Part shown: positions 1,100 through 40,810 of the stretch, piece by piece
How positions within the stretch are numbered: position 1 is the first letter of the stretch
Layout: each line of letters opens with the position of its first letter
The notes under the pieces: generated by a model
The model's database searches: none
Told to the model about the DNA's origin: nothing
What the model saw: only the letters and a program-made list of their open reading frames with translations
Position numbers and translations under genes: made by a program
NCBI GenBank assembly: GCA_964366465.1
Contig: CAYITR010000001.1
Coordinates: forward strand, 1-41,145
Source of the DNA: an uncultured Candidatus Saccharibacteria bacterium
GTDB lineage: Bacteria; Patescibacteriota; Minisyncoccia; Phycocordibacterales; UBA9973
Length of the DNA stretch: 41,145 nucleotides
Reading direction: 5' to 3'

Positions 1100-2200
1100 T
1101 TAAGTGTTACGTTGAAATTTTGATATTTGAAACACAACTCCGATAGCCATCATATACACCATAAGCGCAGTTCCACCATGAGACATAAAAACGAGCGGCA
1201 CCCCCGTCAGAGGGAAAACTCCGATATTCGAGGCAATATGCATAAAGGATTGCGCCGTAATCATTATAACAATCCCCGAGACCAAAAGTCTACTAAATAA
1301 ATCTGGTGAATGGTTGGCGATTCGGAAACCCCGCAAGGCAAAAAGGATGTATAGCACGATGACGGCAACTGCCCCGATAAAACCGGTTTCTTCGCCCAAA
1401 ACCGCAAAAATAGAATCCCCTTGAGCCTCCGGAAGATAGCTGAATTTCTGAATACTTTGACCAAACCCTCGGCCATAAATCCCTCCGCCACCGAGCGCGA
1501 TTAATGATTGCTGGATCTGGTATGACGACCCGCGCGGATCAGATGCAGGATCGAGAAATGTTTCAACTCTATCCTTTAGATAAGGAGTAAAAAATACAAA
1601 TAACGACAATACTAAAATAGTACTGAGGCTAAACCCTAAAATATATTTCATGGGCACCCCCGAGACGAAAAGCATAGCGAGTCCGGTTATGGTAATTAAA
1701 ATAAAACTTTTTGTATCAGGCTGTTGCAGGAGGACTACCGCAATAATCGAAAGCAAGACAAAAAGAGGCAAGATTCCAAACTTTAAATCTTGAACCCTGT
1801 TTTTAGCCCAAGACAACCAAGCGGCAAAATAAATTATGAAACCAAACTTCAAGAATTCCACCGGCTGAAAAGAAAAGCCTGAAAACTGAATCCACCTCTC
1901 TGCCCCACCATGACGCAAGCCGAGCGTAGGGATGAACACCGCCGAGGTCAAGAGTATCGTGCCAAGTAAAATAAAAAAAGCATGTTTACGCCAAAACTTG
2001 TAGTCAATCTTGAGGCACGCGTACATAGCCAAAAATCCGAAACCGAGCCCATAAATTAGCTGGCTTCTAAGCACCGAGTAAAATAATTCTTTATTTTTAA
2101 CTAAAAGCCCGAGCGACGCCGAGATGAAAAGTGCCACGCCAATAGCGATGATAAGCAAGACAACTATAAGGAAAAACTTGTCTATTTTTCTAGTGCGCAT
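1100..2200 (-). CDS. ftsW: FtsW/RodA/SpoVE (SEDS) family peptidoglycan polymerase / lipid II flippase
   Basis: 366-aa polytopic membrane protein with SEDS-type C-terminal motifs (PEAQGDSIFAVLGEETGFIG, GVFPLTGVPLVFMSHGGTA). Located between mraY and murG. Confidence 0.85.
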   Translation of the reverse strand: MRTRKIDKFFLIVVLLIIAIGVALFISASLGLLVKNKELFYSVLRSQLIYGLGFGFLAMYACLKIDYKFWRKHAFFILLGTILLTSAVFIPTLGLRHGGAERWIQFSGFSFQPVEFLKFGFIIYFAAWLSWAKNRVQDLKFGILPLFVLLSIIAVVLLQQPDTKSFILITITGLAMLFVSGVPMKYILGFSLSTILVLSLFVFFTPYLKDRVETFLDPASDPRGSSYQIQQSLIALGGGGIYGRGFGQSIQKFSYLPEAQGDSIFAVLGEETGFIGAVAVIVLYILFALRGFRIANHSPDLFSRLLVSGIVIMITAQSFMHIASNIGVFPLTGVPLVFMSHGGTALMVYMMAIGVVFQISKFQRNT

Positions 2201-2204
2201 TTTC

Positions 2205-3257
2205 TTAACTCACGATGGCAAAAATTATTCCAATAATAGCAAAGACCACGGACAGCACCCAGTAACGCATGGTGACCTTCTCTGCCGACCAACCAAGGGC
2301 CATAAAGTGGTGATGAAGTGGCGCCAGTTTGAAAACCCTCTTCCCTCCCCGCCATTTTTTGGAAGCAAGTTGTAAGATAACTGAAAATGAAGTCACAACC
2401 AAAGGAAATGCCACCACTGGTAAAATCAAAACCGAATCCGTCAGGAACGCTAGAGTAGAGAGAGTAATAGTGAGCCCCATAACCCCCGTTTCACCCATAT
2501 AAAATCTCGCCGGCGGAATATTAAACCAAAGAAATACTAAAGTAACCCCAGAGACAACTCCCGAGAAAGCCGCCAGGTCTATCTGGTTGTTGGCGAAAGC
2601 AATAGCTGAATATGCAGCAAATATCGAAGCCAATACTCCGCCCGCAAGCCCATCAAGGCCGTCAATAACCCCGCCGGAAAAAGTTGCCAATGCCACAATT
2701 ATAAAAAATGGGATTATTAAAATACCCATAAAGAATTCTCCATAAAACGGCACGTGAATAGAGTTCATGTCGAGTTTATAGAAGAACCACATACCGATAA
2801 AGAGGGCGAGGAGTGCGACGAGCATGGCCTTCCACTTGCGCCATGACGCATCGTCCTTAGCTAGACGCCCACTGCCATAAATTTGTAATAGGTCGTCCCA
2901 GAAACCGATAAGTGAACCAATCAGAAGTGTAAAAAGCGGTATTAGAGTCTGATTGCGACTAAAAAAGTTCATCTTCTCAGTATAAGTTGAGGGGAAAAAA
3001 ACAGGAGCTAAATAAAAAATCAAAGTAGTCAGCAAAACTGAAATCCAAATAATCATCCCACCCACCCGCGGAGTATGTAACTCTTCCCTCTCGTTGTGCA
3101 CCCTTAGGAAATCTTCCGAGGAGGCGCTTCCATTGCGGGAATACTTCTTCCACATCTTGTTTTTATAGAAGAAATGCGTGGCAATCGGGGTAATTAAAAG
3201 CCCGATAAAGAACGCGACAGCCATCGGCAAAAAGATTTTGACTAAATCCAAATACAT
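2205..3257 (-). CDS. mraY: Phospho-N-acetylmuramoyl-pentapeptide transferase MraY
   Basis: 350-aa polytopic protein with MraY motifs WDDLLQIYG, GVIDGLDGLAGG, NIPPARFYMGETG and APLHHHF. An extended -10 (TGCTATTCT, plus 3264-3272) lies 6 nt upstream of the ATG. Confidence 0.9.
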   Translation of the reverse strand: MYLDLVKIFLPMAVAFFIGLLITPIATHFFYKNKMWKKYSRNGSASSEDFLRVHNEREELHTPRVGGMIIWISVLLTTLIFYLAPVFFPSTYTEKMNFFSRNQTLIPLFTLLIGSLIGFWDDLLQIYGSGRLAKDDASWRKWKAMLVALLALFIGMWFFYKLDMNSIHVPFYGEFFMGILIIPFFIIVALATFSGGVIDGLDGLAGGVLASIFAAYSAIAFANNQIDLAAFSGVVSGVTLVFLWFNIPPARFYMGETGVMGLTITLSTLAFLTDSVLILPVVAFPLVVTSFSVILQLASKKWRGGKRVFKLAPLHHHFMALGWSAEKVTMRYWVLSVVFAIIGIIFAIVS

Positions 3258-3313
3258 CTGTTTAGAATAGCATTTCTACTGAATTTTTTCTACTTTTTGA
3301 ACTTTACAACTAC

Positions 3314-5062
3314 CTAGTAAACCTCTTGCTGATAACACTTCTCACAATATACTATCTCCGGCCGGTCGGGGGCATATGAAGTCTCAAACCCTACTTCACA
3401 CTTACCTTCGTGATTAGGGTGTTTTTTATCACACATACAAGTCCGACGCCAAAGCTCTAGGGGGTTTCTTTGTTTTAGACGATTAAAGTGTCGACAATTC
3501 GAGCATAGTCGGGGTAATGGGAAATTCATCCTTTTGTAGAATTGAAATTCTTCAGCAGTTATCTTGAATGCTTCAGTGCATTGTTCTTTACAGGTACCTT
3601 GATGAGAACATTCAAAAACTTTACCGACTACATCTTCTTGCACATCGACAATAGAGTTTGGAATTTCTTCTGTTGTAATATCTATCGTGTAATTTCTTTT
3701 TTCTGTATTTTTCCAGACATAACCTTTGCCTCCTGCTTCTTCGGCCGTAAGAGGAAAATATTCCTGCGCTATCGTTTCATTATAAGAAAAGGGTGACAAT
3801 TCTGTAGGGAAAAATTCCCCATACTTGTAAACTATACCCTTCTTGTCCACATAGGGCGTATCATTCATATGCTCAATGATTTTAGGTAGAAGTCTTTCAT
3901 ACTCCGCTTTGGTGTATTGCTTGTTTAATATACAATATTGCTTTTTCCGGAGCCCAATACAGCCAAAACAGTGTTTAATATTGTGGCAATTTAAGCAATA
4001 ACTTGTATCTTCTGAATTGTATAAAGTAATGCCAGAGAAATTCCTTGAGCCATGGTTGGCGTCTACTAATTCGCAGGAAAGTTCATTTTTAAATATTCCA
4101 TTGCCATCGTATGTATCTTTTAAATAAAGCGCGCTGTAAAGAAATTTTGAATTTTCAGCTTCCATAAATAAGTCGAAGCAATACAAACAACTTTTCGAAT
4201 TATTAATATTATCTCCAGTACAGTTGGCGGAAGAAAAGATATTAGCAAAACGATGAATAGAAGGCATGTATATTTCTTGTAAAAAACGATTTTGAATACT
4301 AGTAAAGTCTTGGTAACTATCCATTTTAAAAGTTTCTATTATTATTAAGTATTCTTCCCTAGAATATTGTTTATTCCAAATGCAGTAAGATTTACTAACT
4401 AAGTTGGCACAACCAAAACAATCTGTACAATTTCGGCAATTGTATAAAAAATATGAATCTGTGCAGTTTTTTGAATTACGACTCCAGAATAATTTATACG
4501 AGTCAAAGCAACCTTCGCATTCATATGAGAGTTCGCATTTGGTGCACATAAACAAATCCTGAGAGTCTTTGCATTGCATAAGTTTGTTGCCATATCGAAC
4601 ATTTTCATTCCAACCCGACCCAAAGACAAGGTAGCAATTTTTGTTGCCATCCATGTAATTGGTGTACTCGCAGTTTACGGAATTAATTACAGACAAAGCC
4701 ACAAGCGGTACGTTGTGTAAAAGTTTGGAAAATTGAGTAAAAAAGGGAACTGAAAAATCATATACTAGACCGTAATCAAACGCATCCCACTTGTCACTCC
4801 ACCAATATTCATTATCAAAAACAACCAAAGACTCTTCCGGGTCATACATGCTTATAATTTCTTCGTTATGACCTGGGGCAGCACATTTTACCCTGTGAAG
4901 TGATCGTTCATTTCGCCATGACATCCTTCTCTGATTTCTGCACTCCGGGCAAAACGTCGGTGGCGGGACTTTTATCTTTTCATAAAATCCAAAATCATCC
5001 GGCTCAATGGTGAAGTCGTTCTTACAGTTTTGGCATATTCGATTTTCACTTTTATGTTCCAT
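3314..5062 (-). CDS. Cys/His-rich multi-zinc-ribbon protein, paralog 1 (function unknown)
   Basis: 582-aa ORF with 37 Cys by my count. N-terminal C-x2-C-x24-C-x2-C ribbon (CQNCKNDFTIEPDDFGFYEKIKVPPPTFCPECRNQRR). An internal duplicated module ends CFGC..L..K.YCI.NKQY[ST]..EY. A second F.I..EE..FYKR..P.P..C..CRH ribbon is followed by CMCD and the terminal H-x-H-x3-C-x17-CxxC (..YAPDRPEIVYCEKCYQQEVY). No TM segment or signal peptide. Confidence 0.8.
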   Translation of the reverse strand: MEHKSENRICQNCKNDFTIEPDDFGFYEKIKVPPPTFCPECRNQRRMSWRNERSLHRVKCAAPGHNEEIISMYDPEESLVVFDNEYWWSDKWDAFDYGLVYDFSVPFFTQFSKLLHNVPLVALSVINSVNCEYTNYMDGNKNCYLVFGSGWNENVRYGNKLMQCKDSQDLFMCTKCELSYECEGCFDSYKLFWSRNSKNCTDSYFLYNCRNCTDCFGCANLVSKSYCIWNKQYSREEYLIIIETFKMDSYQDFTSIQNRFLQEIYMPSIHRFANIFSSANCTGDNINNSKSCLYCFDLFMEAENSKFLYSALYLKDTYDGNGIFKNELSCELVDANHGSRNFSGITLYNSEDTSYCLNCHNIKHCFGCIGLRKKQYCILNKQYTKAEYERLLPKIIEHMNDTPYVDKKGIVYKYGEFFPTELSPFSYNETIAQEYFPLTAEEAGGKGYVWKNTEKRNYTIDITTEEIPNSIVDVQEDVVGKVFECSHQGTCKEQCTEAFKITAEEFQFYKRMNFPLPRLCSNCRHFNRLKQRNPLELWRRTCMCDKKHPNHEGKCEVGFETSYAPDRPEIVYCEKCYQQEVY

Positions 5063-5075
5063 TTTTTTCTTTAAG

Positions 5076-5115
5076 CTACTTTAGTTTAGTAAAGTAATTT
5101 ACTTTGATAAAGTAG
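5076..5115. promoter_or_regulatory. 40-bp TACTTT/AAAGTA inverted-repeat module, 36/40 identical to the yerC-like promoter at 13451-13490
   Basis: CTACTTTAGTTTAGTAAAGTAATTTACTTTGATAAAGTAG lies in the 59-bp gap between the two Cys-rich genes. The last 18 nt (TTTACTTTGATAAAGTAG) are identical to 13473-13490. Confidence 0.6.
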
Positions 5116-5121
5116 TTAAAT

Positions 5122-6876
5122 TTAATATACTTCCGCTTGATAACACTTCTCACAATACACGATCTCCGGCCGATCGGGAGCGTAGCTGGTTTCAAACTCC
5201 ACCTCACACTTCCCCGCTCCGTGGTTGTGGTGGTTAGTTTTGTCGCACATGCACTCCCTGCGCCAGAGATGTAGTGGATTCTTTTGTTTTAAACGTTTGA
5301 AATGCCTACAATTCGGACACAAATGAGGAATTGGTAAACTGAGCCTCTTGTAAAAAACTAGTTCTTCAGAAGTTATTTTAAAAGCTTCGGTGCAAGACTC
5401 GTTGCATTTCCCCTCGTGCGCACAACCGATAACTTTACCGACGATAGAATCATCCGCGTCGTTAATATTGTCAGGTAATTCTTTTTCCTCAATTTCAATA
5501 TGATAGTTTCTTTGTTCGGGATTTTTCCAGGCAAAGCCAAAACTCTCTGCGCCTTGTTTGTCTAAGGGGTAATATTCCTGCGCAATTGTTTCGTTATATG
5601 CAAAAGGTGATAATTCCGCCGGAAAAAATTCGCCATATTTATACACCCTGCCCTTCTGATCAATGTAAGGCATTGTATTCATGTGCTCAATAATTTTCGG
5701 TAAGAGTTTCTCGTATTCTTCTTTTGTGTATTGCTTGTTTAATATACAATACTGCTTTTTACGAAACCCGATACAGCCGAAACAGTCCTTAACATCATGA
5801 CAATTCATGCAATAATAAGTATTTTCCGAGTTATATATGGTTATACTAGACAGATTCCTGGATCCAATATTAGCATCTACGAGTTCATATGATAATTCAT
5901 TTTTAAATATACCATTTCCGTCGTAAGAATCCTTTAGGTTGAGCGCGCTATATAAATATTTGGAATCTTCGGTTTCTTGATATAGATCAAAACAATTTAG
6001 ACAATTTTTAGCATTGTTTATATTGTCTCCAGTGCACCCTACGGACGAGAAAATATTAGCGTAACGGTGAATCGAAGAAAGATATAATTCGTTATAAAAA
6101 CGCTTCTTTATATTTTCTAATGCTTGGTCACTGTTGATTTTATATTCTTTTAAAATATTGAAATATTCATCTCGCGAATACTGCTTGTTCCAAATACAGT
6201 ATGATTTACTAATTAAATTAGTGCAGCCAAAACAATTTGTGCAGTTTCTGCAGTTATATAAAAAATAAGAATCCGTGCAACTTTTAGAGTTACGAGACCA
6301 AAATAAACGATATGAGTCCAAACAGCCCTCACATTCATAAGAAAGCTCACATTTTGTACACATTAGTAGGTCTTGTGAATCTTGGCACTGCATTAGTTTG
6401 TTTCCATATCTTACATTCTCGTTCCAGCCCGCGCCAAAAGTAAGGTAACAATTTTTGTTACCATCCACAAAATTTGTGTATTCAGAGTTTATGGAATTAA
6501 TTACAGAGAGAGCCACAATCGGAACATGACGGAGAAGTTTATTAAACTGAGTAAAAAAGGAAGTCGAGAAATCATAATCTATTCCGCTATCTAGCGCATC
6601 CCACTTGTCGCTCCACCAATATTCAGTATCGACAACATTGAAATTCTCGCTATCGCTATACATGCTGATAATGTCCTCAGAATGTCCAGGCACACGGCAT
6701 TTTACCTTATGTAAAGATCGCTCATTCCGCCAGGCCATTCGTCTCTGGTTTCTGCACTCCGGACAAAACGTAGGTGGCGGAACTTTGATCTTCTCATAAA
6801 ATCCGAAATCATCCGGCTCGATGGTGAAGTCGTTTTTGCAGTTTTGACAGGTTCGGTTTTCGTTTGTAAATTCCAT
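5122..6876 (-). CDS. Cys/His-rich multi-zinc-ribbon protein, paralog 2 (function unknown)
   Basis: 584 aa, collinear with and highly similar to paralog 1 (same N- and C-terminal ribbons, same central repeats). Preceded by GGTGGAG 4 nt upstream of the ATG. Confidence 0.8.
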   Translation of the reverse strand: MEFTNENRTCQNCKNDFTIEPDDFGFYEKIKVPPPTFCPECRNQRRMAWRNERSLHKVKCRVPGHSEDIISMYSDSENFNVVDTEYWWSDKWDALDSGIDYDFSTSFFTQFNKLLRHVPIVALSVINSINSEYTNFVDGNKNCYLTFGAGWNENVRYGNKLMQCQDSQDLLMCTKCELSYECEGCLDSYRLFWSRNSKSCTDSYFLYNCRNCTNCFGCTNLISKSYCIWNKQYSRDEYFNILKEYKINSDQALENIKKRFYNELYLSSIHRYANIFSSVGCTGDNINNAKNCLNCFDLYQETEDSKYLYSALNLKDSYDGNGIFKNELSYELVDANIGSRNLSSITIYNSENTYYCMNCHDVKDCFGCIGFRKKQYCILNKQYTKEEYEKLLPKIIEHMNTMPYIDQKGRVYKYGEFFPAELSPFAYNETIAQEYYPLDKQGAESFGFAWKNPEQRNYHIEIEEKELPDNINDADDSIVGKVIGCAHEGKCNESCTEAFKITSEELVFYKRLSLPIPHLCPNCRHFKRLKQKNPLHLWRRECMCDKTNHHNHGAGKCEVEFETSYAPDRPEIVYCEKCYQAEVY

Positions 6877-6883
6877 AACTCCA

Positions 6884-6939
6884 CCTCACCCGACCTTCGG
6901 CCACCCTCTCCTTGCCAAGGAGAGGTGCTGGGGGTGAGG
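6884..6939 (-). promoter_or_regulatory. GC-rich compound stem-loop between the dac 3' end and the Cys-rich paralog 2 start
   Basis: Outer arms CCTCACCC (6884-6891) / GGGTGAGG (6932-6939). Inner 9-bp stem CCTCTCCTT (6905-6913) / AAGGAGAGG (6917-6925). No U-tract, and the minus-strand 3' arm overlaps the GGTGGAG Shine-Dalgarno-like sequence of the downstream gene. Confidence 0.5.
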
Positions 6940-6942
6940 TCT

Positions 6943-7872
6943 TTAAGAATTGTATAGTATATTCACTATCTTTTCCATATCAGCGAAACGGCCGTCGAAG
7001 GTGGAGCCAAGGAGGGTGACGGCTATCTCGCGCCCGCCTTTATCTTTAAATATCACCACTAGGTTCCCGCCGGCGATTTCAGTAAAACCAGTTTTGGAGA
7101 AAAGCAAATTTGGGATTTTGCCTATTAAAATGTTGGTATTTTTGAAATTATGTTCGAAGCCAGATTCAGATTTTAGATTTATCTCAGGCATTGTCGTCAC
7201 GCTGAAAATTTCTGGATAAGCTTTCAGTGCATATATGGCCATAGCGTTGACGTCCTCCGCTGAAGCCACAACGCCTGCCTACGCAGGCAGGCCGACACCG
7301 ACAGGCTCCTTTTTATTTTCTAAGTACAGATCAAGCCCTGTCGGATTGGCAAAAAATGTATTAGCCGTGCCGAGTCTTTGCACTTTACTGTTAATACTTT
7401 CTAAAAAATTTTCTCTCTGTTCATACAAAGCATAAGCTCCATCGTTGGCGGAAACTATTAAGGTGAATTTGGCCAAATCCCCTATCTTCCATTTTTCATA
7501 AGCAAAAATTCCGAAATCTCCCGACTGCTTCACCGCATTTGGTGACACATAGACGATGTCATCCATCTGGTGCTCCTTTAATCCTTCGACGACGGTCATA
7601 ATTTTAGCCAGTGAAGCAATAGGTAACGCCACGTCATCGTTTTTCCCATAAATTTTTTCATTATCTGTTATGTTATAAACAGACACCGCTTGGGCTAAAA
7701 TCGGAGTTTGCTCAAGCGCATTTCTGACGCTCTCATTCCTTTCATTTTTTAATTTTGTAAATTCATGAAATTTTGAGTCGCCAATAAAAAAGAAAGTTGC
7801 TGTGAAAGCAACAACAAGTAACATAAAAAATAATATATTATTGTGCGTCTTCATCTTTGAGCGCTGTATCAA
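6943..7872 (-). pseudogene. Serine-type D-Ala-D-Ala carboxypeptidase (peptidase S11, PBP5/DacB-like) interrupted by one in-frame TAG
   Basis: Track ORFs 7279..7872 and 6943..7269 are in the same frame, separated only by TAG (plus cta 7279-7281). SxxK (ASLAKIMT), SxN (SANDGAY) and KTG (KTGFTEIAGG) motifs are split across the two pieces. Confidence 0.7.
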
Positions 7873-13228: not shown

Positions 13229-13249
13229 AATGTTTTTAAAAATTAAAAC

Positions 13250-13380: not shown

Positions 13381-13450
13381 ATATTTAATTGTATAAACAT
13401 TATACCACACACAAAACACCACAAAAAATAGTTTTCCACACCTATTCCAA

Positions 13451-30691: not shown

Positions 30692-31792
30692 TTATATCCC
30701 CTCTTTTTTGAGCTCTTCGATAATCTCACGAGATTTGCGAGAAATTTTATTTGGGAGTTTTATATTGAGCTTGATTAATAAATCTCCGCGTTTATTCTTG
30801 CCGATAGGCACACCCTTGCCTCGCACCCGCAGAATTTCGTTAATAGATACACCTTCGGGTATCGTAACCTCAATTGCGCCGTCCAAAGTCTCGATAGGAT
30901 ATTTAGTGCCGAGCAATGCATCAGAGAGTTTCAAATTTAAATTCATCACCAAGTCATGCCCGTCGCGTTTGAAGACAGGATGCGGAGCAACATTTATTTT
31001 TATATATAAGTCACCAGCGGTGCCTTTTGATATTGCTTCGCCCATCGTGGTCATGCGGATCATTTCGCCATCGCGAATCCCAGCCGGAATAACGATAGAG
31101 ATTTCTTCTTCACGACGAGCTACACCTTTGCCTTTACATTTATCACACAATTCTTTTGGCACCTCGCCTGCGCCATGACATTCTTCGCAAATTTTTGTGC
31201 TGGAAATAGTACCGAGGAATGATCTCTTGGCTTCATGAATCTTACCCTGACCATTGCAGTGTTTACAGGTAACCATACCTGAGCCAGCCTTAGCGCCAGA
31301 GCCATGACAAGACAAACACGCGGAAGTTTTCGTAATTAAAATTTTCCTACTGATACCAAAAATAGAGTCAGCAAAAGAAATAGTTATCTCGGTCGAGATG
31401 TCTCTACCTCGGCGCGCCTGCGCTCTGCCACCACCACCGGTGAAAAAGTCACTGAATATGTCGTTCAAATTTCCGAAATCAAACTCTGCGCCATTACCTC
31501 CGAAGCCAGTCGCACCAGAGAAATCAAAACCCTCAAATCCGCCGTATCCACCACCTTGGTGTTGGTGCCCACCAGCGCCCATGTTGGCATATTGAGGTCC
31601 AAATTGATCATATTTAGAACGCTTGCCTTCGTCAGACAGGGTCTGATACGCTTCGTTCACTTCTTTGAACTTTGCCTCATTCCCCTCTTTTTTATCAGGG
31701 TGATATTTGTGCGCCAGCTTATAGAAGGCCTTTTTAATCTCCTCCTTGCTTGCGTTTTTATTTACTCCTAATGTTTCATAGTAATCTTTCAT
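30692..31792 (-). CDS. dnaJ: Molecular chaperone DnaJ
   Basis: J domain DYYETLGV..HKYHPDK, a Gly-rich linker, and four CxxCxGxG zinc-finger repeats. Confidence 0.9.
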   Translation of the reverse strand: MKDYYETLGVNKNASKEEIKKAFYKLAHKYHPDKKEGNEAKFKEVNEAYQTLSDEGKRSKYDQFGPQYANMGAGGHQHQGGGYGGFEGFDFSGATGFGGNGAEFDFGNLNDIFSDFFTGGGGRAQARRGRDISTEITISFADSIFGISRKILITKTSACLSCHGSGAKAGSGMVTCKHCNGQGKIHEAKRSFLGTISSTKICEECHGAGEVPKELCDKCKGKGVARREEEISIVIPAGIRDGEMIRMTTMGEAISKGTAGDLYIKINVAPHPVFKRDGHDLVMNLNLKLSDALLGTKYPIETLDGAIEVTIPEGVSINEILRVRGKGVPIGKNKRGDLLIKLNIKLPNKISRKSREIIEELKKEGI

Positions 31793-31802
31793 AGATTTTT
31801 CA

Positions 31803-33338
31803 TCATATCATAGGCTCTGCTTCTTGTGAAGTTTTTATTTTTGGATTTTCTTCCGCAACTTTTTCCTCCTTTGCCTCGTCAGAACCTGTCGACTCGGTGG
31901 GTTCTTCTTTGCCTTCATTTTCTCCCTCTTTTTTATTTTTACCTTCAATGATAGCTTTTTCTTCTGCGCTTCGGATTATTGTCGCTTCTTCTTCGGCAAT
32001 CAGGCGCGCAGCGGCATCTTTCGAAATGGAGTATTTTTCATGAGAAGCGTTAATTATTTCTTCTCGATAAGAAGGATGAGTCGGAGGCAAAACTCTAAGC
32101 GTCTCCGCCGAAAAAGGATCGTAGGATTCACCATCAATGGTCATTTTGATATAAAATTCTGTCACCGCGAGGTTGATCATGTCTTTCACATCGAAGAGTG
32201 GCGCAAATTCCGGTTTCATTTTGACAGCGTCTTCACCCCCAACTCGGAAAGTTATAATACTCCCGCAATTCCCCAGAACAGCTTGGTGAACTTTAGAAAT
32301 AATCTGCCCGACATATTGATGGGCAATAGTTAGGTTGAGTCCGTATTTACGCGCTTCTGACAAGATGTTTTCAAAAGTCTGCGTAACCACATTCTGAAAC
32401 TCATCCACATATATGTAGAAATCTTTGCGATCTTTTTCGGGTATTGCCGCTCGTTCCATGCCGGCTTGCTTGATTTTGGTTAAAAATATTGACCCAAGAA
32501 AAGAAGAATTTTCCTCGCCGAGGCGCCCTTTAGAAAGATTAATCAGAATAATTTTCTCTTGGTTCATTAATTCACTTATGTCTATTTTGTTTTCCTTCTG
32601 CCCGAAGATGTTGCGGAGGAGTGGGTCGGACAGGAACTGCCCGAGTTTGTTGACAAGCGGAATAATAGCATCAGTGTCGAACTTCTCGGACCAGTCGGCG
32701 AACTCAATAGCGAAGAATCTTTTCACCATGTCGTCGGTGATATACTCCACCACTTTCTGCCGGTAATTTCTGTCGGTCAACATCGAGATCATCCCGCGCA
32801 TTGTCGCGTGCGGGTAGTCGAGGAGCGCAAGGCAAGTAAAACGAAAAACGTGCTCAAGCCTCGGTGTCCAGTTGGCGCCGAACTGCTTTTGGAAAACCTC
32901 AATCAAGCCCTGGGTAAGTTGGAATTTAAACAACGGGTCCACATTGGCGAGTGGATTGAAGGAAGCTGGAAAGTCGAGGTCGGTCGGGTCAATGATACAC
33001 ACATCGTCAATACGCTCTTTCGGTATGTATTCAAGCATAGCGTCGATGACATCTCCGTGCGGGTCAATCAAACAAAGCCCATGTTTGTAGGTGACGTCTT
33101 GGCGAAGCATCAGCTCCAGGAGTTTGGTCTTGCCAACGCCAGACTTCCCTATGATATACAAGTGCCTTCTTCTGTCCACCCGCTTAATGCCGAAAACGAA
33201 CTTCTTCTCTTCAAGAGAAGCCACATAATTCGTCCGCCCGATGAAAGAAACATCTTCGGGATTTACCTTGCCAAAAACCGCCAACTCCGGTGGCGGTGGC
33301 CCATATTTGATTATTTTAACTCGATTTGGCTTTGGCAT
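31803..33338 (-). CDS. Soluble VirD4/TraD (T4CP)-like P-loop ATPase, paralog 1
   Basis: FGIKRVDRRRHLYIIGKSGVGKTK (Walker A), LIDPHGD, FYIYVDEFQN (Walker B-like), LTIAHQY. No N-terminal TM helices. Acidic/Lys-rich low-complexity tail. Preferred start is ATG 33338 (the track uses TTG 33350). Confidence 0.7.
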   Translation of the reverse strand: MPKPNRVKIIKYGPPPPELAVFGKVNPEDVSFIGRTNYVASLEEKKFVFGIKRVDRRRHLYIIGKSGVGKTKLLELMLRQDVTYKHGLCLIDPHGDVIDAMLEYIPKERIDDVCIIDPTDLDFPASFNPLANVDPLFKFQLTQGLIEVFQKQFGANWTPRLEHVFRFTCLALLDYPHATMRGMISMLTDRNYRQKVVEYITDDMVKRFFAIEFADWSEKFDTDAIIPLVNKLGQFLSDPLLRNIFGQKENKIDISELMNQEKIILINLSKGRLGEENSSFLGSIFLTKIKQAGMERAAIPEKDRKDFYIYVDEFQNVVTQTFENILSEARKYGLNLTIAHQYVGQIISKVHQAVLGNCGSIITFRVGGEDAVKMKPEFAPLFDVKDMINLAVTEFYIKMTIDGESYDPFSAETLRVLPPTHPSYREEIINASHEKYSISKDAAARLIAEEEATIIRSAEEKAIIEGKNKKEGENEGKEEPTESTGSDEAKEEKVAEENPKIKTSQEAEPMI

Positions 33339-33381
33339 ATGATTTTGCAAATCACGTCGCGTAAGTCCTTTGGACGCGACG

Positions 33382-33672
33382 CTACCTGTATTTTAGCATG
33401 AATTTGTATGAAAAAGGTTCGGCGTATTTTTCTAAAATACTTCGCTCATATGTGTCGAGTTTGTCGTAACCCAAAATAAAATTCTTTATCACGCTCCATT
33501 CTTCCCTGCCTGCGGGAATAATATCTTTAAAACTTAAAATAGTATCAACTATGTCTAATGCGCGATTTTTTGCATTATTGGCGGCTTCAACTTTCCCAGA
33601 ATCATGAAAAGAAAAAAGCCGGCCTATCTCGGGATATAAGTTTGCCATATAAAAGAGCGCGTTTTTTTCCAT
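33382..33672 (-). CDS. Hypothetical 96-aa protein
   Basis: ORF only, spaced 3 nt from the upstream gene. A GC hairpin CGTCGCGT..ACGCGACG (33355-33381) follows its stop. Confidence 0.45.
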   Translation of the reverse strand: MEKNALFYMANLYPEIGRLFSFHDSGKVEAANNAKNRALDIVDTILSFKDIIPAGREEWSVIKNFILGYDKLDTYERSILEKYAEPFSYKFMLKYR

Positions 33673-33675
33673 AAA

Positions 33676-34032
33676 TTACTTTAAATCAATAAATTTCCGA
33701 ATAATCTCAGTGGCCTTTTTAATAATCTCTTCATTGCTTATATTTCTGGAGCGATTGCCAAAGTTGGGCTTAATGTTGACCATCGAATCAAATTCCAAAA
33801 CCCCGTCAGGATTTTCTTCAAAACGAATATTAAAGCCCCAAACATCTTCAAATTTTGAACCCGTGCTGGTCAGTAGCTCAGAATCTTCAATATGATAATC
33901 CCCGCCCAGCGCCACTCTGCCTCCTTCTATATCCACCGCTCCTTTTATCATCGTTCCATACCAAAAATCCGCCAATTTTTTAACTTCATCTATGCTAATC
34001 TTCTGATCTAAAATAAGTATCCTATTGTCCAT
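33676..34032 (-). CDS. Hypothetical 118-aa protein (small conserved-looking domain, unassigned)
   Basis: The ORF has an extended -10 TGCTAAAAT 8 nt upstream of the ATG. The segment GAVDIEGGRVALGGDYHIEDSELL..EDVWGFNI looks like a widespread small uncharacterised family and needs an HMM search. Confidence 0.5.
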   Translation of the reverse strand: MDNRILILDQKISIDEVKKLADFWYGTMIKGAVDIEGGRVALGGDYHIEDSELLTSTGSKFEDVWGFNIRFEENPDGVLEFDSMVNIKPNFGNRSRNISNEEIIKKATEIIRKFIDLK

Positions 34033-34138: not shown

Positions 34139-35860
34139 CTAATACACTTCCTGTTGATAACACTTTTCGCAATATACTATCTCCGGGCGATTGGGGGCAT
34201 AGCTGGTCTCAAACTCACTTGGACATCGGATGTCCAAGTGGTTGTGGTGGGTAGATTTATCACACATACACTGTCTGTGCCAGAGCCTGGGTGGGTTAAC
34301 TTTTTTAAATCTTTCTTGGTGCCTACACTCAAAACAATTCCTTGGTAAAGGAAGATTAAATTGTTTCAAAAAACTTAATTCACTCTTAATGATTTTATAT
34401 ATACGTTTGCAAGACTCACATTCAATTAACTCATCTAAAATATCAGTACTAACATCACTAATATGATTAGGCAAATCTTGTGATTGAATGGTGGCAGTAT
34501 GTTCTGGTTTTTCTCGTTCAATATAGTTAAACCCACCTTCTAAAACATCTCTCTTGTTTAGGGGAAAATAGTCCGCTGCGACCGTTTCATTGTAGCCGAA
34601 AGGAGAAATCTCTGCTGGAAAATACTCTCCATATTTATAAATTCGTCCTTTTTTGTCCACATACGGGATATTTATCATCTGCTGTTTAATTTTCTCTACC
34701 AATTCTATATACTCTCCCTTGGAATATTGTTTATTAAAAACACAATAACTTTTATTACGAAGCCCTACACATCCAAAAATATTGTTACAACCATGGCAAT
34801 TCCAAGAATATTCCGTATTTAAGCATTCCCACACAGTTAAAACAAATAACTGCCTTGATCCATTTACACCAGAATCCATAGCTTCATAAAGTAATTCTAC
34901 AATTCCAGTACCATACCCATCATAACTATCTTTTACTTTAAACGAATTCATTAAAAATTTATCATCTTTTATATCTTCAAAGACCCCAAAACAATACTTC
35001 GAATTATTGGCATGGCTTATATCATCACCAGAGACATTTGTCGAATTTATAATATTTGCAAATCTTCTAATGGCATCCAACTTTAATTTTTCAAATTTTT
35101 CTTTTACTTTTTTAAAGTTTTCGAAATTCCCCAAATTTAATTCTTTAAATCTTTTAATGTATTCATCTTTTGTGTATTGTACATTCCACATGCAATTTGA
35201 CTTATTTCGAAGAGATGTACAACCGAAACAATTAATACAATTTTTACAATCATAAAGAAAGTAAGAACTAGTACAAGAATCGACATTTTGTGAGAAAAAA
35301 GTTTCATAACTTTTAGTAGAAGAAATATCAGCATAGCAAAATTCACAATTAGAGGTTATGTACATATCTATAGAATCCTTACAGAAATTACATCGTGATG
35401 CATATGTTATATTTTCTCCACCCCAAGACGCAGATACTAAGTATGAATTTCTAAATTCGCCAATAAAATTTCCGTAAGAAGTATTAACGCATTTACCAAT
35501 AAAAAGATTAGGTTGGGGTACCTTTTCCATGAGAGTGCGAAATTGCCCAAAGAACGGTTTTGAAAAATCATAGTCTATGCCAAATGCAATTGGATCCCAT
35601 GAATCACCCCACCATATATCTCTTTCGTAAACAGTAAATGGAGAATCTGTTGAAAAACAACTGATTAAACTCTTTCCAGTTTTTGCACACTTATTTCGGT
35701 GTAACGTACGTTCATTACGCCAAGCCATCCTACGTTGCATACGACACTCCGGACAAAACGTCGGTGGCGGAACTTTGATCTTCTCATAAAAATTAAAATC
35801 CTCCGGTTCAATTACGAAATCTTTTTTACAGTTTTGACAATTTTTTGTTTCAGGTTTCAT
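34139..35860 (-). CDS. Cys/His-rich multi-zinc-ribbon protein, paralog 3
   Basis: 573 aa with the same architecture as paralogs 1 and 2 (CQNCKKDFVIEPEDFNFYEKIKVPPPTFCPECRMQRR ... CFGCVGLRNKSYCVFNKQYSKGEY ... CFECRHQERF ... CMCDKSTHHNHLDIRCPSEFETSYAPNRPEIVYCEKCYQQEVY). TAAAGT lies 7 nt upstream of the ATG. Confidence 0.8.
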   Translation of the reverse strand: MKPETKNCQNCKKDFVIEPEDFNFYEKIKVPPPTFCPECRMQRRMAWRNERTLHRNKCAKTGKSLISCFSTDSPFTVYERDIWWGDSWDPIAFGIDYDFSKPFFGQFRTLMEKVPQPNLFIGKCVNTSYGNFIGEFRNSYLVSASWGGENITYASRCNFCKDSIDMYITSNCEFCYADISSTKSYETFFSQNVDSCTSSYFLYDCKNCINCFGCTSLRNKSNCMWNVQYTKDEYIKRFKELNLGNFENFKKVKEKFEKLKLDAIRRFANIINSTNVSGDDISHANNSKYCFGVFEDIKDDKFLMNSFKVKDSYDGYGTGIVELLYEAMDSGVNGSRQLFVLTVWECLNTEYSWNCHGCNNIFGCVGLRNKSYCVFNKQYSKGEYIELVEKIKQQMINIPYVDKKGRIYKYGEYFPAEISPFGYNETVAADYFPLNKRDVLEGGFNYIEREKPEHTATIQSQDLPNHISDVSTDILDELIECESCKRIYKIIKSELSFLKQFNLPLPRNCFECRHQERFKKVNPPRLWHRQCMCDKSTHHNHLDIRCPSEFETSYAPNRPEIVYCEKCYQQEVY

Positions 35861-35902: not shown

Positions 35903-37669
35903 TCAATACATCTCCTGCTGGTAACACTTTTCACAATACACTATCTCCGTACGATCGGGAGCGTAGCCAGTTTTGAATTTTTCTCCGCAGGCGGAATCAC
36001 CGTGAATATGTTTGGCGGTGTTTTTATACACACCCGTTTCATCTCCCGCTCCGGCGCACATACATGTTCGTTCATATAGATGAAGTGTCCGCCTGTCAGC
36101 AATCCGGCGCGCGTGCCTGCATTCGCTACACATCCGCGGAGCCGGCAGGTTTTCTTTTTTTAGAAAGATAAATTCATTCTCGAGTACCCGGTAAGCAAAT
36201 CCGCATTTTTCACATTCTAAAACTTCTTTAAGTATATCTTCCGATATTTCATTTATACTCTCCGGCAAATCAAGCGCTTTCATTGTTATCTTGTATTCCC
36301 CTCGCGGAATTTCAATCCAACCGTAATTGTTTTGCATCGCTTCTTCTTTAGAAAGAGGAAAATGTTGCATCGATATAGTGTTGTTATAACCAAACGGGCA
36401 CCACTCAAGCGGGAAGAATTCTCCATATTTATAGACAACGCCCCTCGAATCAACATAGGGCATTTCGCTCATCTGCTCCCTTATTTGAGGCACAAGTTTT
36501 TCATATTCTTCTTTTGTATATTGTTTATTTAAAATGCAATATTGTTTATTTTTTAACCCCACACAACCAAAGCAATTTGCAGAGCTGTAAAGATGCACAC
36601 CGTATTCATTTTCGCGACAATTCGGCCAGCAGTTTCTGGAAAATTTATTATTGTAAGAATTTTGACCGCACTCTATGGCTTCATAGCAAAGTTCGATATT
36701 TTCTCCCCAGTTGGTGGTGTCATAGTTGTCCTTATTGCTTGGTACCGCCAGATACTGGCAATATCGCATATTTTCACTCTCTCGCACGAGGTAGCTGTCT
36801 TTGACATTACGACAGTTGGACACATACGAGCCTGAAGAATTCACATTTTTTATTCCTTGAATATATTTGACGGGTTGAGTGTTCCAAAACTCTCGCGCCC
36901 TCCTGCGAGCTTCTTCAATACCCGACACTGTGTCGAGCCTCATTTTCTCAATTTCATTTTTATATTCTTCCTTCGTGTATTGTTTGTTGAATATCCGATA
37001 TGAAGCTTTGTTGACATTTACGCATCCGAAGCAATCATTGCATCCTACGCAACCTCTACAAAACCACATATTCCTGGAGTCGTGAGTTCGCTCGGTGAAA
37101 TAACATTGATAGCATTTAGTTATCCAAAAACATTCGTAACACCTCTCGGAGTTGTTTATGTGCGAATTGTCCACGCAATCTTTACTGTTATCGACAGCGT
37201 TACCATACATACAATCCTCGGAATCGTTGGAGTTACACAACAGGTAAGAATTTTTTAGTCTAGAGGCGTTGAAGGAATACGGCCTATTGATCATCCCAAT
37301 CACATTGAAGTTATACATTGGCACTTTCATTTCAAGTTTATGGAGCTGTTCCCAGAAAGACCGCGTCGAATCGTAGTCCTGTCCGTATTCCATGGCATCC
37401 CATGTATCCCCGAGCCAAGTACTCCTCTCGATTATTTTCCTGCCGCTCTCTTTGGGATAAGTGGAAAATATTTCTTTCCCGCTGAAAGCATCCTGGATTT
37501 TAAAAAGCTTGCGCTCGTTTCTGAAAGCCAGCCTCCTCTGCGCTCGACAAAGCGGACAAAACGTCGGCGCTGGCACCTTTACTTTCTCATAGAAATTAAA
37601 GTCCTCCGACTCGATAGTGAAATCTTTTTTACAGTTCTGACAAATTTTGTTTTCTGATTGGTGTGTCAT
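35903..37669 (-). CDS. Cys/His-rich multi-zinc-ribbon protein, paralog 4 (most divergent)
   Basis: 588 aa. CQNCKKDFTIESEDFNFYEKVKVPAPTFCPLCRAQRR ... CFGCVGLKNKQYCILNKQYTKEEY ... CSECRHARR ... CMC..HIHGDSACGEKFKTGYAPDRTEIVYCEKCYQQEMY. Its ATG abuts the kinase stop codon. Confidence 0.8.
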   Translation of the reverse strand: MTHQSENKICQNCKKDFTIESEDFNFYEKVKVPAPTFCPLCRAQRRLAFRNERKLFKIQDAFSGKEIFSTYPKESGRKIIERSTWLGDTWDAMEYGQDYDSTRSFWEQLHKLEMKVPMYNFNVIGMINRPYSFNASRLKNSYLLCNSNDSEDCMYGNAVDNSKDCVDNSHINNSERCYECFWITKCYQCYFTERTHDSRNMWFCRGCVGCNDCFGCVNVNKASYRIFNKQYTKEEYKNEIEKMRLDTVSGIEEARRRAREFWNTQPVKYIQGIKNVNSSGSYVSNCRNVKDSYLVRESENMRYCQYLAVPSNKDNYDTTNWGENIELCYEAIECGQNSYNNKFSRNCWPNCRENEYGVHLYSSANCFGCVGLKNKQYCILNKQYTKEEYEKLVPQIREQMSEMPYVDSRGVVYKYGEFFPLEWCPFGYNNTISMQHFPLSKEEAMQNNYGWIEIPRGEYKITMKALDLPESINEISEDILKEVLECEKCGFAYRVLENEFIFLKKENLPAPRMCSECRHARRIADRRTLHLYERTCMCAGAGDETGVYKNTAKHIHGDSACGEKFKTGYAPDRTEIVYCEKCYQQEMY

Positions 37670-38731: not shown

Positions 38732-40810
38732 TTATTCTAGCAACTTCTTCAGCACATCTTCGGGCACTTCCTTGATATTATTCGAAGTAAGCGGAGGCTC
38801 CCCGCCTGCATCAGCTATGCCTAAAGCATTGCGGGCAGGTGCAACTTTTTTGATTACTTCTTTCAATTTATTCATATCTTCCGGCTTGGCGGCGCGGTCT
38901 TCATGCTTGCTGGAGGCAGGAACATGGGGCACAGATTTCGGAGGCGTATTTAAGACATTCAGGGAAACAGGCGCAGGTGTAGGCGCTGTTTCAACTTTGG
39001 GTGCAGGCGCAGGAGTGATAACAGTAACTTTCAAAGCATTATCTTTGGCCAGTGTTTTATTCAGCACTTCTTTGAGCGCGGTGTTCGATTTGACTCCTCC
39101 AGTAGGTGCGAATTTTTTGGATGTATCTACCCTCTCTACTTTGTATGGATTAGAATGCACCGGGGAACGCACTGGTTGAACTTGCTTTTTTGGTTCCTGG
39201 TGGACAGGTCGCTCCTCCACAAATTCCCCACCCGAACTCGACGGAAACTCGATACCTAGATCCGCCAGCGGTTTGAAAAACTTTGAATCGTCGTATTTAA
39301 TCTGATTTTCGGAAGTTTTTTCTACTTTAACTTCGCCGGATTTTATTTTAGCAATACACTCCTTACAGTACGCTGGTCGCCCCGGCTCTGGCTTAAACGG
39401 CACGGTTTTTTCTAGCTTACAAAGAGAACAAATAATCGGAAATTTCTCAAACGAACCCGTAACACTATTCATACTGCTTGACGAAGTATCGTCTCCAAGA
39501 GTCATCCCGCTCCAGTCGTTAATTTCTTTCTCCACCACTTCTTTTGTCCGGCAATACAGCTCTCGCGAGGATTTGATAACTTGTTGTTCAATTTCTTTAT
39601 TGCCGGACTTCACCATCTGGGGCAAGGTCTTGGCCGAGAATGGCCGTGAGGTCACGCCATCAATCATCAGCTTCAAGTAAATTTTATAGTTCGGCAAATT
39701 AACGATGTCTTGCGGGGTAAATTCTGGGTCAAATTCACTTTCCAGAAATTCGGCATCGTCCGCGCCGACACGGAAAACGATCATTGTCCCCACGTTGCCG
39801 AAAATAGCATCCCGCACTGCCGAGCTTTTGTCCACCACGAGTTGAGCGGTGTATTGGTGCGCCACGGTCAAGTTCAAGCGATATTTGCGAGCCTCCGAGA
39901 GGATTCCAGCGAAGGCGTCAGTCACGAAGTTCTGGAATTCGTCCACATATAGGTAGAAGTCACGTCTGGCTTCCTCGGGAATGCGCACACGCTCCATGGC
40001 CGCGAGCTGAATTTTGGTGATGATCATCCCTCCGAGTAACGCGGAATTGTCCTCGCCAATACGCCCCTTGGACACGTTGACTAAGAAAATTTTACCCTCG
40101 TTCATCATATCGAAAACATTAATCGTGCTTTTCGACTGACCGACGACGTTGCGGATTATAGAAGTGGAGAGGAATTGTCCAACTTTGTTTTGAATCGGAG
40201 CGATAGCTTCGTTTCTGAATTTGTCCTGCCATGCCTCATATTCATGCACCCAGAAAGCCTTAATCACCGGATCTTTCAGATTGGAAATAATTTTCTGGCG
40301 GTAATCCTTGTCCACCAGCATTCGCGGGATACCGAGGAGCGTGGTGCCAGGTGTATCGAGCAAGGCTAAAATACAATTGTTCAAAATGTATTCCATTCTA
40401 GCGCTCCAAGCATTCGCCCAAATTTTCGTAAATATTCCCATTAAGCCCGAGGCCACCAAGTGCTTGTATTGCGGATCCACCAGCTCGAGCACGTTGAAGC
40501 CGATGTGGTGGTCGGCATCGGCGGGGTTGAAATAAATCACATCTTTCATTCGATGTGGTGGAATAGCTGAGAGCACGCTCTCAACATTTTCTCCGTGTGG
40601 GTCAACAAGGCAAACCCCCTCGCCGTTTTGAATGTTCTGAATAATCATATTGAACATCAGCACGGATTTACCTGTGCCGGACTTTCCGAGCACATAAACA
40701 TGCTGGCGCCTGTCTTTGCGCTTGATGCCAAAAAGGGTGTTCTTGTCCCGATAAGTGGTTATGCCAAGATAAGTAAGTTCTTTATTGAACGGCACCTGAA
40801 ATTCTTCCAT
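38732..40810 (-). CDS. Soluble VirD4/TraD (T4CP)-like P-loop ATPase, paralog 2, with C-terminal CxxC-x17-CxxC zinc ribbon and Pro/Ala-rich tail
   Basis: FGIKRKDRRQHVYVLGKSGTGKSV (Walker A), LVDPHGE, FYLYVDEFQN, LTVAHQY. CSLCKLEKTVPFKPEPGRPAYCKEC spans aa 461-485 (nt 39356-39430). Extended -10 TGtTATAAT lies 7 nt upstream of the ATG. Confidence 0.75.
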   Translation of the reverse strand: MEEFQVPFNKELTYLGITTYRDKNTLFGIKRKDRRQHVYVLGKSGTGKSVLMFNMIIQNIQNGEGVCLVDPHGENVESVLSAIPPHRMKDVIYFNPADADHHIGFNVLELVDPQYKHLVASGLMGIFTKIWANAWSARMEYILNNCILALLDTPGTTLLGIPRMLVDKDYRQKIISNLKDPVIKAFWVHEYEAWQDKFRNEAIAPIQNKVGQFLSTSIIRNVVGQSKSTINVFDMMNEGKIFLVNVSKGRIGEDNSALLGGMIITKIQLAAMERVRIPEEARRDFYLYVDEFQNFVTDAFAGILSEARKYRLNLTVAHQYTAQLVVDKSSAVRDAIFGNVGTMIVFRVGADDAEFLESEFDPEFTPQDIVNLPNYKIYLKLMIDGVTSRPFSAKTLPQMVKSGNKEIEQQVIKSSRELYCRTKEVVEKEINDWSGMTLGDDTSSSSMNSVTGSFEKFPIICSLCKLEKTVPFKPEPGRPAYCKECIAKIKSGEVKVEKTSENQIKYDDSKFFKPLADLGIEFPSSSGGEFVEERPVHQEPKKQVQPVRSPVHSNPYKVERVDTSKKFAPTGGVKSNTALKEVLNKTLAKDNALKVTVITPAPAPKVETAPTPAPVSLNVLNTPPKSVPHVPASSKHEDRAAKPEDMNKLKEVIKKVAPARNALGIADAGGEPPLTSNNIKEVPEDVLKKLLE

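Follow-up and report, generated by a model that had tools for sequence, protein, structure and literature searches.

A large cysteine-rich protein family of Paceibacteria-type genomes and its linkage with soluble VirD4-like ATPase genes

A stretch of 41,145 nucleotides from an uncultured bacterium (contig CAYITR010000001.1, positions 1 to 41,145; hereafter the window) raises the question of why a small genome would carry, within 41 kb, at least four copies of a Cys- and His-rich protein of about 580 residues, and with what these proteins might work. A first reading made from the letters alone (the sequence-only reading) had singled out two adjacent, highly similar genes on the minus strand. 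Their coordinates proved exact: paralog 1 (3314..5062, minus strand; 582 aa) and paralog 2 (5122..6876, minus strand; 584 aa, with a GGAG-type ribosome-binding site just 5′ of its ATG) both belong to subfamily ‘B’ and are 75% identical, and our recount of paralog 1 gives the same 37 Cys, together with 13 His. The two further copies announced 29 kb away are both full-length and occupy positions 34139-37669, namely paralog 3 of subfamily ‘L’ (34139..35860, minus strand; 573 aa, 48% identity to paralog 1) and paralog 4 of subfamily ‘D’ (35903..37669, minus strand; 588 aa, 42% identity to paralog 1). Paralogs 1 and 2 are the more recent duplicate and are under purifying selection, since the proportion of nonsynonymous differences between them (pN) is 0.149 and that of synonymous differences (pS) is 0.806.

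A very large family and its ATPase neighbours

The family is real, very large and uncharacterized, and has no described relative. Whole-protein scans of Pfam, NCBIfam and PADLOC returned nothing significant, a profile search of PDB sequences and tblastn searches of phage and plasmid collections gave no match, and the PHROGs gave only weak matches to families of unknown function (best E 1.2e-3, phrog_15341). Source records name the homologues either ‘hypothetical protein’ or by an automated guess, and the family is not mentioned in the literature that could be searched on PF13451 and PF23477, on cysteine-rich or zinc-ribbon proteins of Patescibacteria, or on Paceibacteria expression data. The family thus matches no described family or solved structure, and the claim that it has neither an enzymatic motif nor a characterized function agrees with the scans of Pfam, NCBIfam, PADLOC and the PDB, in which no family of known function appeared.

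Both word-indexed homologue searches were saturated (7,993 and 7,992 of the 8,000 candidates were significant), and when the profile was searched exhaustively, at least 5,041 clusters (50% identity) reached E ≤ 1e-3 and 2,193 reached ≤ 1e-30. The architecture is fixed at ~550-620 aa: nearly all of the top 150 clusters have 500-625 aa and align over essentially the whole profile, about ten being shorter or partial. With searches saturated in this way, so many clusters and the pN and pS values given above, the conservation lies far beyond chance. Wherever the source organism is named, the family is near-exclusive to Paceibacteria-type metagenome-assembled genomes of the Candidate Phyla Radiation (CPR; Patescibacteria), the named sources being Nomura-, Lipton-, Giovannoni-, Staskawicz-, Sungii- and Niyogibacteria, Paceibacterota and Minisyncoccia. 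The window itself matches an assembly made from the 0.1-µm fraction of Hainich groundwater. It should be noted that the label Saccharibacteria on some records stems from an automated third-party annotation (TPA) binning series, and we assume it to be a generic placeholder. Three other records are labelled Burkholderiales (locus L039), Gammaproteobacteria (L045) and Bacteroidales (L060), of which the last two are short contigs; L039 is a contig of 267,744 bp (JAMPXW010000002.1) on which the family genes and their neighbours follow an order typical of Paceibacteria (AL-FAM-FAM-rsmE-AS-dnaJ-FAM, where FAM is a family gene and AL and AS are the long and short ATPases described below). All three are probably mis-binned Patescibacteria contigs.

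Paralog 4 has orthologues of 64-75% identity in many genomes, across genera, and is only 42% identical to paralog 1 of its own window. Two to six family open reading frames (ORFs) lie within ±8 kb in 52 of 79 sampled loci, almost always head-to-tail on one strand, and the members of an array are mostly of different subfamilies. The family duplications therefore look ancient and retained, as judged from these identities and from the mixed subfamilies of the arrays. Paceibacteria genomes measure roughly 0.5-1 Mb, and the largest contigs that we encountered were of 0.67 and 0.81 Mb. With at least four copies in so small a genome, arrays of up to six in relatives and such orthologue identity across genera, an investment of this scale suggests a core, lineage-defining function.

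We may wonder at this stage what accompanies these genes. Two samples were compared: 79 loci of GTDB genomes obtained with the family profile (best-scoring 80), with flanks of ±8 kb, and the 80 best-scoring metagenome loci obtained with the ATPase profile independently of the family, 33 of them spanning at least 12 kb. In the family-based sample, the commonest non-family neighbour is an ATPase of the TrwB/VirD4/TraD type (31 of 79 loci). In the reverse direction, a family gene lies within 8 kb in 31 of the 33 longer ATPase loci and within 500 bp of the ATPase in 22 of them, and in about 20 loci of the ATPase-based sample the order AL-FAM(1-3)-AS runs on one strand with gaps mostly below about 120 bp. 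The remaining recurrent neighbours are all housekeeping genes. The family and the soluble VirD4-like ATPases are therefore linked in both directions at the operon level.

The window contains one such cassette, with all of its genes on the minus strand in the order AL, APH kinase, the 588-aa and 573-aa family proteins (paralogs 4 and 3), two small ORFs, AS and dnaJ. It is opened by AL, a soluble VirD4/TraD/TrwB-like P-loop ATPase of 692 aa (38732..40810) with a CxxC-x17-CxxC finger at aa 456-489, and closed by AS, a soluble VirD4/TraD-like ATPase of 515 aa without the finger (31803..33350), after which dnaJ follows as a conserved downstream neighbour (30692..31792). The two small ORFs between paralog 3 and AS (33382..34032; 118 and 96 aa) match no family and have homologues in L017, L021 and L061, in which the position is kept. 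Downstream of the finger, the tail of AL (aa 491-692) is a low-complexity region of ~200 aa rich in Pro, Lys, Glu, Ala and Val, and AS has no such tail. The APH-family phosphotransferase (PF01636; 37670..38668, minus strand; 332 aa) has a homologue within the family array of L057 (3299-4342), and its presence in the cassette may hint at phospho-regulation or at a small-molecule link.

The assignment of the ATPases relies on PF10412, PF02534, PF12696 and PF01935 (DUF87, HerA central domain), which all score above cutoff; PF10412 gives 41.6 and 31.8 bits on the two window copies (cutoff 20.5). The NCBIfam TraD/VirD4 equivalog models all stay far below their cutoffs, and there is a weak match to CedD. 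The Walker A and B motifs are intact (GKSGTGKS/YLYVDE and GKSGVGKT/YIYVDE). Kyte-Doolittle windows revealed no N-terminal transmembrane anchor in the 48 ATPases scanned, the best 19-residue window being about 1.1 for both window copies and at most about 1.6 for nearly all 48. The long ATPases have about 560-920 aa, and 11 of the 24 ORFs of at least 558 aa carry the finger CSxCGKETxVPFxPxPGRPVYCKxC; none of the short ones (about 480-520 aa) shows this pattern. The finger of the window AL passes the TIGR04272 and PF23477 models with 37.8 and 38.7 bits (cutoffs 36 and 27 bits, respectively).

The linkage recurs in different settings. In one gene order, the cassette is inserted among chaperone genes (grpE-[FAM]-paaX-dnaK-AL-[FAM x1-2]-AS-dnaJ-[FAM]-...); in another, the genes run HARE-HTH/sigma70_r4, u450 (membrane), u172, ATPase, [FAM x2-5], cutA, ATPase; a third and rarer order, [FAM]-(mraY)-ftsW, joins the family to cell-wall genes. 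In the second order, CutA1 is often found between the family array and the second ATPase, and a conserved trio stands 5′ of the ATPase-family arrays (L070, 4639-6510; also L020, L023, L042, L043, L061 and L065): a HARE-HTH/sigma70_r4 protein of ~342 aa, a membrane protein of ~450 aa and a protein of ~172 aa, the last two of which have no Pfam or NCBIfam match. The ~450-aa membrane protein could be the missing anchor of the soluble ATPases.

Compared with the type IV coupling proteins (T4CPs) VirD4, TraD and TrwB, the partner ATPases belong to the same family, with intact Walker motifs, and as in conjugative elements their genes adjoin that of a candidate substrate or partner rather than virB4. 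They differ in being soluble and devoid of a transmembrane anchor, in forming a long/short pair and in being chromosomal and embedded in housekeeping operons. No relaxase or type IV secretion system (T4SS) genes were seen near them in the loci sampled, which are partly annotated; no VirB4- or relaxase-like cluster occurs among the recurrent neighbours within ±8 kb in the 79 and 80 loci, where many single-copy neighbours are unannotated; and no T4SS, virB4 or relaxase gene turned up among the window ORFs scanned, only part of which are annotated. The family proteins, unlike the substrates and adaptors of T4CPs, resemble no relaxase, accessory protein or known effector. A survey of 2025 counted 5,713 VirD4-type T4CP homologues in 2,918 CPR genomes, only 148 of the 5,713 being near virB4, and raised exaptation as a possibility (doi 10.1101/2025.01.22.634366). 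About two T4CPs per CPR genome in this survey matches the AL/AS pair, and the linkage gives a testable partner for thousands of these ‘orphan’ coupling-protein homologues (doi 10.1101/2025.01.22.634366). The partnership between the family and the ATPases is a concrete lead that has apparently not been reported so far.

Terminal ribbons and central repeat modules

Conservation was read from an alignment of 62 sequences covering the paralog subfamilies. Invariant or near-invariant Cys/His positions number about 20 and are located at three ribbons and at the ends of two repeat modules (in paralog 1 numbering, C10, C13, C38 and C41; C209, C212, C215 and C218, plus C227; C368 and C377; C485, C495, C520 and C523; C542, C544, H548, H550/551, C555, C573 and C576). 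Conservation is highest in the N-terminal ribbon, in aa 402-445 and in both C-terminal ribbons, intermediate in the repeat modules, and lowest in aa 446-480 and in the helices that follow module A. From its N-terminus, the protein consists of a basic treble-clef-like ribbon and a small linker domain, then of modules A and B, both modelled as β-solenoids and separated by helices, and then of a ‘GEFFP’ segment, a second basic ribbon and finally a Cys/His cluster with a C-x17-CxxC ribbon.

The ribbons that the sequence-only reading had placed at the termini are all found as quoted, and their zinc-ribbon or treble-clef-like character is upheld. The first (aa 1-55; 4898..5062, minus strand) has the pattern C-x2-C-x24-C-x2-C at C10, C13, C38 and C41, which, like C520-x2-C523, is invariant in the alignment. 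The second (aa 481-535; 3458..3622, minus strand; C485, C495, C520 and C523) carries F.I..EE..FYKR..P.P..C..CRH. These two are homologous duplicates (hhalign probability 98.9%, E 1.9e-17 over 48 columns). Both are basic, with a median charge of +3 and an isoelectric point (pI) of about 8.8, and both have (near-)invariant Arg residues at i, i+4 and i+8 after the second knuckle (R42/R46/R50 and R524/R528/R532). Their resemblance to PF13451 (zf_Tbcl, ‘probable treble clef domain’, formerly zf-trcl), put forward for the N-terminal one by the sequence-only reading, stands in so far as PF13451 is the best Pfam match of both, but it falls short of membership: against a gathering cutoff of 24 bits, the model scores 21.8 bits on the N-terminal ribbon (E 1.8e-4) and 14.5 bits on ribbon 2 (E 0.036), and on whole proteins it gives 14.7 bits for paralog 2 and nothing for paralog 1. 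The shared features are the CxxC...CxxC pattern, with two CxxC knuckles about 20-25 residues apart, and F-x-I...[DE]..FY...P..C..CR in both ribbons; PF13451 is itself a domain of unknown function and would cover less than 10% of the protein.

The third ribbon is of a different type. It forms, with a preceding Cys/His cluster (C542, C544, H548 and H551), the C-terminal region C555-x17-C573-x2-C576 (aa 536-582; 3317..3457, minus strand), in which the CMCD and H-x-H-x3-C-x17-CxxC motifs are seen. The C-x17-CxxC with its [FY]-x-P-x3-[RP]-x2-YC-x2-C signature is shared with TIGR04272/PF23477 (zf_Tbcl_2), whereas the first knuckle of the family is a single Cys following the C-x-C...H..H cluster instead of a CxxC. 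PF23477 is the best match of the isolated C-termini, below its cutoff (14.0 bits for paralog 1; 20.9 bits, E 3e-4, for paralog 4). TIGR04272, which the sequence-only reading had suggested scanning for, gives no match at E ≤ 1 in the family proteins, and it is the neighbouring long ATPase that matches it. The C-terminal ribbon is no more than a sub-threshold relative of the TIGR04272/PF23477 domain. BLASTP of AL against paralog 4 detected no significant similarity beyond the ribbon. We infer that the ribbons of the family would bind zinc, from the patterns of their Cys quartets and by analogy with the CxxC-x17-CxxC domains of small proteins of M. mazei, which bind zinc experimentally (PMC12704099). 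The H-x-H motif could also recall an HUH relaxase; we rejected this candidate, as the His residues form part of a C-x-C...H..H arrangement of the kind seen at zinc sites, and relaxase similarity is absent. Between the modules and ribbon 2, the highly conserved segment PYVDxKGxxYKYGEFFPxExSPFxYNET (aa 402-445; 3728..3859, minus strand) matches no family. In the module-wise scan, aa 56-118, the central modules and aa 385-480 have no Pfam match even at E ≤ 10.

The centre of the protein is not what the label ‘multi-zinc-ribbon’ implied: the degenerate Cys-bearing turns that the sequence-only reading noted there are not zinc ribbons and make up a duplicated nonapeptide-repeat module, modelled as a β-solenoid. 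Module A (aa 119-234; 4361..4708, minus strand) has about 12 nonapeptide repeats and ends in C209-x2-C212-x2-C215-x2-C218-x8-C227, where C209 and C215 are invariant and C212, C218 and C227 are conserved at 85-98%. Module B (aa 267-384; 3911..4264, minus strand) is its duplicate and ends in ...C368-x8-C377. Comparison of aa 119-266 with aa 267-402 gives an hhalign probability of 99.9% (E 1.4e-32 over 119 columns), so that a module of ~120 aa is repeated in tandem over the central ~270 aa; the internal duplication had been deduced from the motif CFGC..L..K.YCI.NKQY[ST]..EY, which does occur twice. In each module the register is C-x2-[C/S]-x2-[C/S]-[Y/F]-x, 9 residues in length. Over the 62 sequences, Cys-Cys spacings of 3, 6, 9 and so on up to 30 are over-represented 2.4-4.5-fold in the central region, and all other lags are under-represented (≤0.5). 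Most of the other central Cys are 30-80% conserved and are replaced mainly by Ser, and because of this free exchange most central Cys are unlikely to be metal ligands.

AlphaFold2 with the 62 sequences gave for the full-length protein a pLDDT of 81.7 and a pTM of 0.85, with about 90 at the ends and 58-76 in the repeat modules. For aa 119-402 alone, with 150 sequences, both modules were modelled with continuous extended runs of 35-55 residues at a pLDDT of about 90. The sequence-only reading had looked to AlphaFold and Foldseek for a relative; the structure could indeed be modelled, but no significant match to a known structure emerged. With the full-length model, Foldseek returned no PDB match at E ≤ 10 and only zinc-ribbon fragments of 40-70 aa in BFVD. 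With the module model, it returned 79 non-significant PDB matches (best E 0.5, TM ≤ 0.19), nearly all of which are β-helices or β-solenoids: tailspikes, pectate-lyase-like enzymes, pentapeptide-repeat proteins, SufBD, cofactor C and Ag43. We conclude from these models that the repeat modules would belong to the β-solenoid class, with no identifiable relative in it, and the central module looks like a repeat β-solenoid of a new type. It shares with pentapeptide-repeat proteins, RTX, TmAFP and bactofilins short tandem repeats modelled as a continuous β-ladder; the RTX unit also has 9 residues, and TmAFP, an antifreeze β-helix, also has a regular Cys ladder. Yet the consensus fits none of these families. 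The family modules have no GGxGxD calcium motif as in RTX, and the proteins appear cytoplasmic, unlike the secreted and disulfide-bonded solenoids of the TmAFP type. Pentapeptide-repeat DNA mimics (Qnr/MfpA-like) have A(D/N)LXX repeats and are acidic, whereas the family unit has 9 residues and the median net charge of the modules is -1, for which reason an acidic DNA mimic was rejected as a candidate. The bactofilin (PF04519) and pentapeptide Pfam models gave no match at E ≤ 10 on the isolated modules.

Possible roles

The reading that we favour, tentatively and with somewhat less than even confidence, is that the family proteins are cytoplasmic zinc-stabilized scaffold or adaptor partners of the VirD4-like ATPases. 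The absence of a transmembrane helix and a probable cytoplasmic location had been proposed for them, and the Kyte-Doolittle scan agrees: windows of 19 residues disclosed no hydrophobic segment, the best window having a median of 0.84 over family members. In such a scheme they would be dedicated partners (adaptor, regulatory subunit or client) of the two soluble, presumably hexameric ATPases encoded in their flanks. The near-invariant terminal ribbons would dock to a common partner, which might be the ATPase itself, whose long form has a related CxxC-x17-CxxC finger, or alternatively a nucleic acid, which the Arg ladders (i/i+4/i+8) would contact; the solenoid modules, duplicated and more variable, could then give the different ancient paralogs distinct binding surfaces or let them build a hetero-oligomer. 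Both the physical partnership and a possible docking of nucleic acid, partner or client via the Arg ladders are inferred. A bolder version, which we regard as doubtful, is that AL, AS and one to several family proteins constitute an unrecognized Paceibacteria-wide cytoplasmic machine, in which an exapted coupling-protein motor has its specificity or substrate set by the solenoids, with a fold absent from the PDB. If true, it would explain about two ‘orphan’ T4CP genes per CPR genome away from any T4SS. Should the partnership be real, this major radiation of uncultivated bacteria would possess an ATPase-driven system of a new kind, and structural work would have a clear target.

Several observations weigh against the ATPase partnership. 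Both samples are the best-scoring 80 and are phylogenetically clustered, so inherited synteny inflates the counts, although the linkage holds in at least two unrelated syntenic frames despite this clustering. Pair 1 (paralogs 1 and 2) has no ATPase nearby and adjoins mraY/ftsW, and 64 of 99 family-sampled arrays have no ATPase within two genes, which is partly a contig-end effect. The similarity between the C-terminal ribbon of the family and the ATPase finger is weak (hhalign probability 59%, E 9e-5). Finally, the AlphaFold2 confidence for parts of the solenoid is only 55-75.

Other explanations have to be weighed against the same data. Since the partner ATPases are T4CP homologues (PF10412, PF02534, PF12696), and T4CP genes typically adjoin substrate-processing genes and not virB4, the family might consist of T4SS effectors whose terminal ribbons are recruited by the VirD4-like coupling proteins for delivery into a host; the multi-paralog arrays would then be an effector arsenal, and the conserved termini common to all paralogs would resemble shared translocation domains. 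We consider this rather unlikely. The ATPases have no N-terminal membrane anchor, which T4CPs use to dock on the channel; the rigid length and architecture, the 64-75% identity of orthologues across genera and the low pN/pS are not what one expects of polymorphic effectors, which evolve fast; proteins that are tightly folded and bind several zinc ions make poor substrates for secretion; the window ORFs scanned include neither virB4 nor any other T4SS gene; and in Southlakia the T4SS is essential for epibiotic growth, whereas the T4CP is not. An equally improbable alternative is a stand-alone nucleic-acid binder acting through the Arg-ladder ribbons, for which adjacency to the ATPase would reflect only a shared substrate or inherited synteny. 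The basic charge and Arg spacing of the two PF13451-like ribbons would suit such a role, one homologue has been automatically labelled ‘Zn ribbon nucleic-acid-binding protein’ by JGI, and the ATPases are of the FtsK/HerA/VirD4 DNA-pumping superfamily, with their weak CedD match. However, the scans revealed no DNA- or RNA-binding domain of a known kind, and the protein as a whole is slightly acidic, with a median net charge of -6. A regulator would not usually be present as four or more paralogs in so tiny a genome, and the linkage to the ATPase is two-way and found in at least two different syntenies.

The chaperone neighbourhood suggests another function, in which the family would be a metal- or redox-linked proteostasis factor working with DnaK, DnaJ and GrpE, as a zinc or thiol-switch holdase resembling Hsp33 or the Cys-rich part of DnaJ, or as a metal buffer, and the ATPases would be exapted as unfoldases. 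Family genes do recur after grpE, between dnaK and dnaJ and after dnaJ, the proteins are Cys- and His-rich, and CutA1, which is associated with divalent-ion tolerance, recurs between the arrays and the ATPase. We give this a marginally lower probability than the two preceding explanations: neither Hsp33 nor the DnaJ CxxCxGxG domain nor metallothioneins showed any similarity in the Pfam and NCBIfam scans, and the chaperone synteny is limited to one set of related lineages, others being different. The composition is not metallothionein-like either, with only 6.4% Cys, about 15% aromatics and most central Cys replaceable by Ser; a metallothionein proper was rejected for the same variable central Cys, together with the 582-aa length and 86 aromatic residues (F+Y+W). 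The neighbourhood of pair 1 invites one more comparison, with a bactofilin-like β-helical cytoskeleton or scaffold that would organize cell-wall synthesis. The location that the sequence-only reading emphasized is real, in that MraY (2205-3257, minus strand) and then FtsW (1100-2200, minus strand) lie directly downstream of the pair and a DD-carboxypeptidase gene lies on its other side; in L019, L064, L067 and L072, ftsW likewise has a family gene beside it or within a few genes (adjacency to mraY being confirmed only in L067), and the β-solenoid, as modelled here, is the fold class by which bactofilins polymerize. But this is a minority context: some 5 of 80 loci show the division and cell-wall (dcw) setting, whereas the dominant ATPase context occurs in at least 31. 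With no bactofilin match on the isolated modules, and with solenoids that in the compact model (pTM 0.85) would be capped on both sides by other domains, which argues against end-to-end polymerization, we hold this explanation to be very improbable.

Other features of the window

On the 5′ side of pair 1 lie the genes of the DD-carboxypeptidase, ScpB and ScpA. The DD-carboxypeptidase gene (Peptidase_S11; 6943-7872, minus strand) is interrupted at codon 198 by one in-frame TAG (7279-7281), and both halves match contiguous stretches of PF00768. This TAG stands within a short inverted repeat, GCCTGCCTGCG TAG GCAGGCG. Because TAG is the ordinary stop of 9 of the 29 window genes, recoding is unlikely, and the TAG is probably a nonsense mutation, a pseudogene or an assembly error. 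Between the stop of this gene and the start of paralog 2, a GC-rich branched hairpin (6882-6940, minus strand) ends just before the GGAG ribosome-binding site of paralog 2. It folds with a ΔG of -34.2 kcal/mol (z -3.3; none of 200 shuffles as stable), and has no T-tract 3′ of it, no second copy in the window and no Rfam match. It could be a regulatory or processing element.

The regions of the family genes (3001-7000 and 34001-38000) have a GC content of 0.33-0.41, compared with 0.42-0.47 in their surroundings, which is consistent with the high content of Asn, Lys, Tyr, Phe and Cys in the proteins, encoded by AT-rich codons. The genes themselves have a GC content of 0.35-0.39. We rejected a mobile element or horizontal transfer as the cause, as AT-rich codons are the simpler explanation, there is no integrase and the synteny is chromosomal and conserved. 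Elsewhere in the window, a SAM riboswitch (RF00162, 64.6 bits; 13283-13382, minus strand) overlaps the annotated start of an ORF of 351 aa (12293-13348, minus strand), the true start of which probably lies further downstream.

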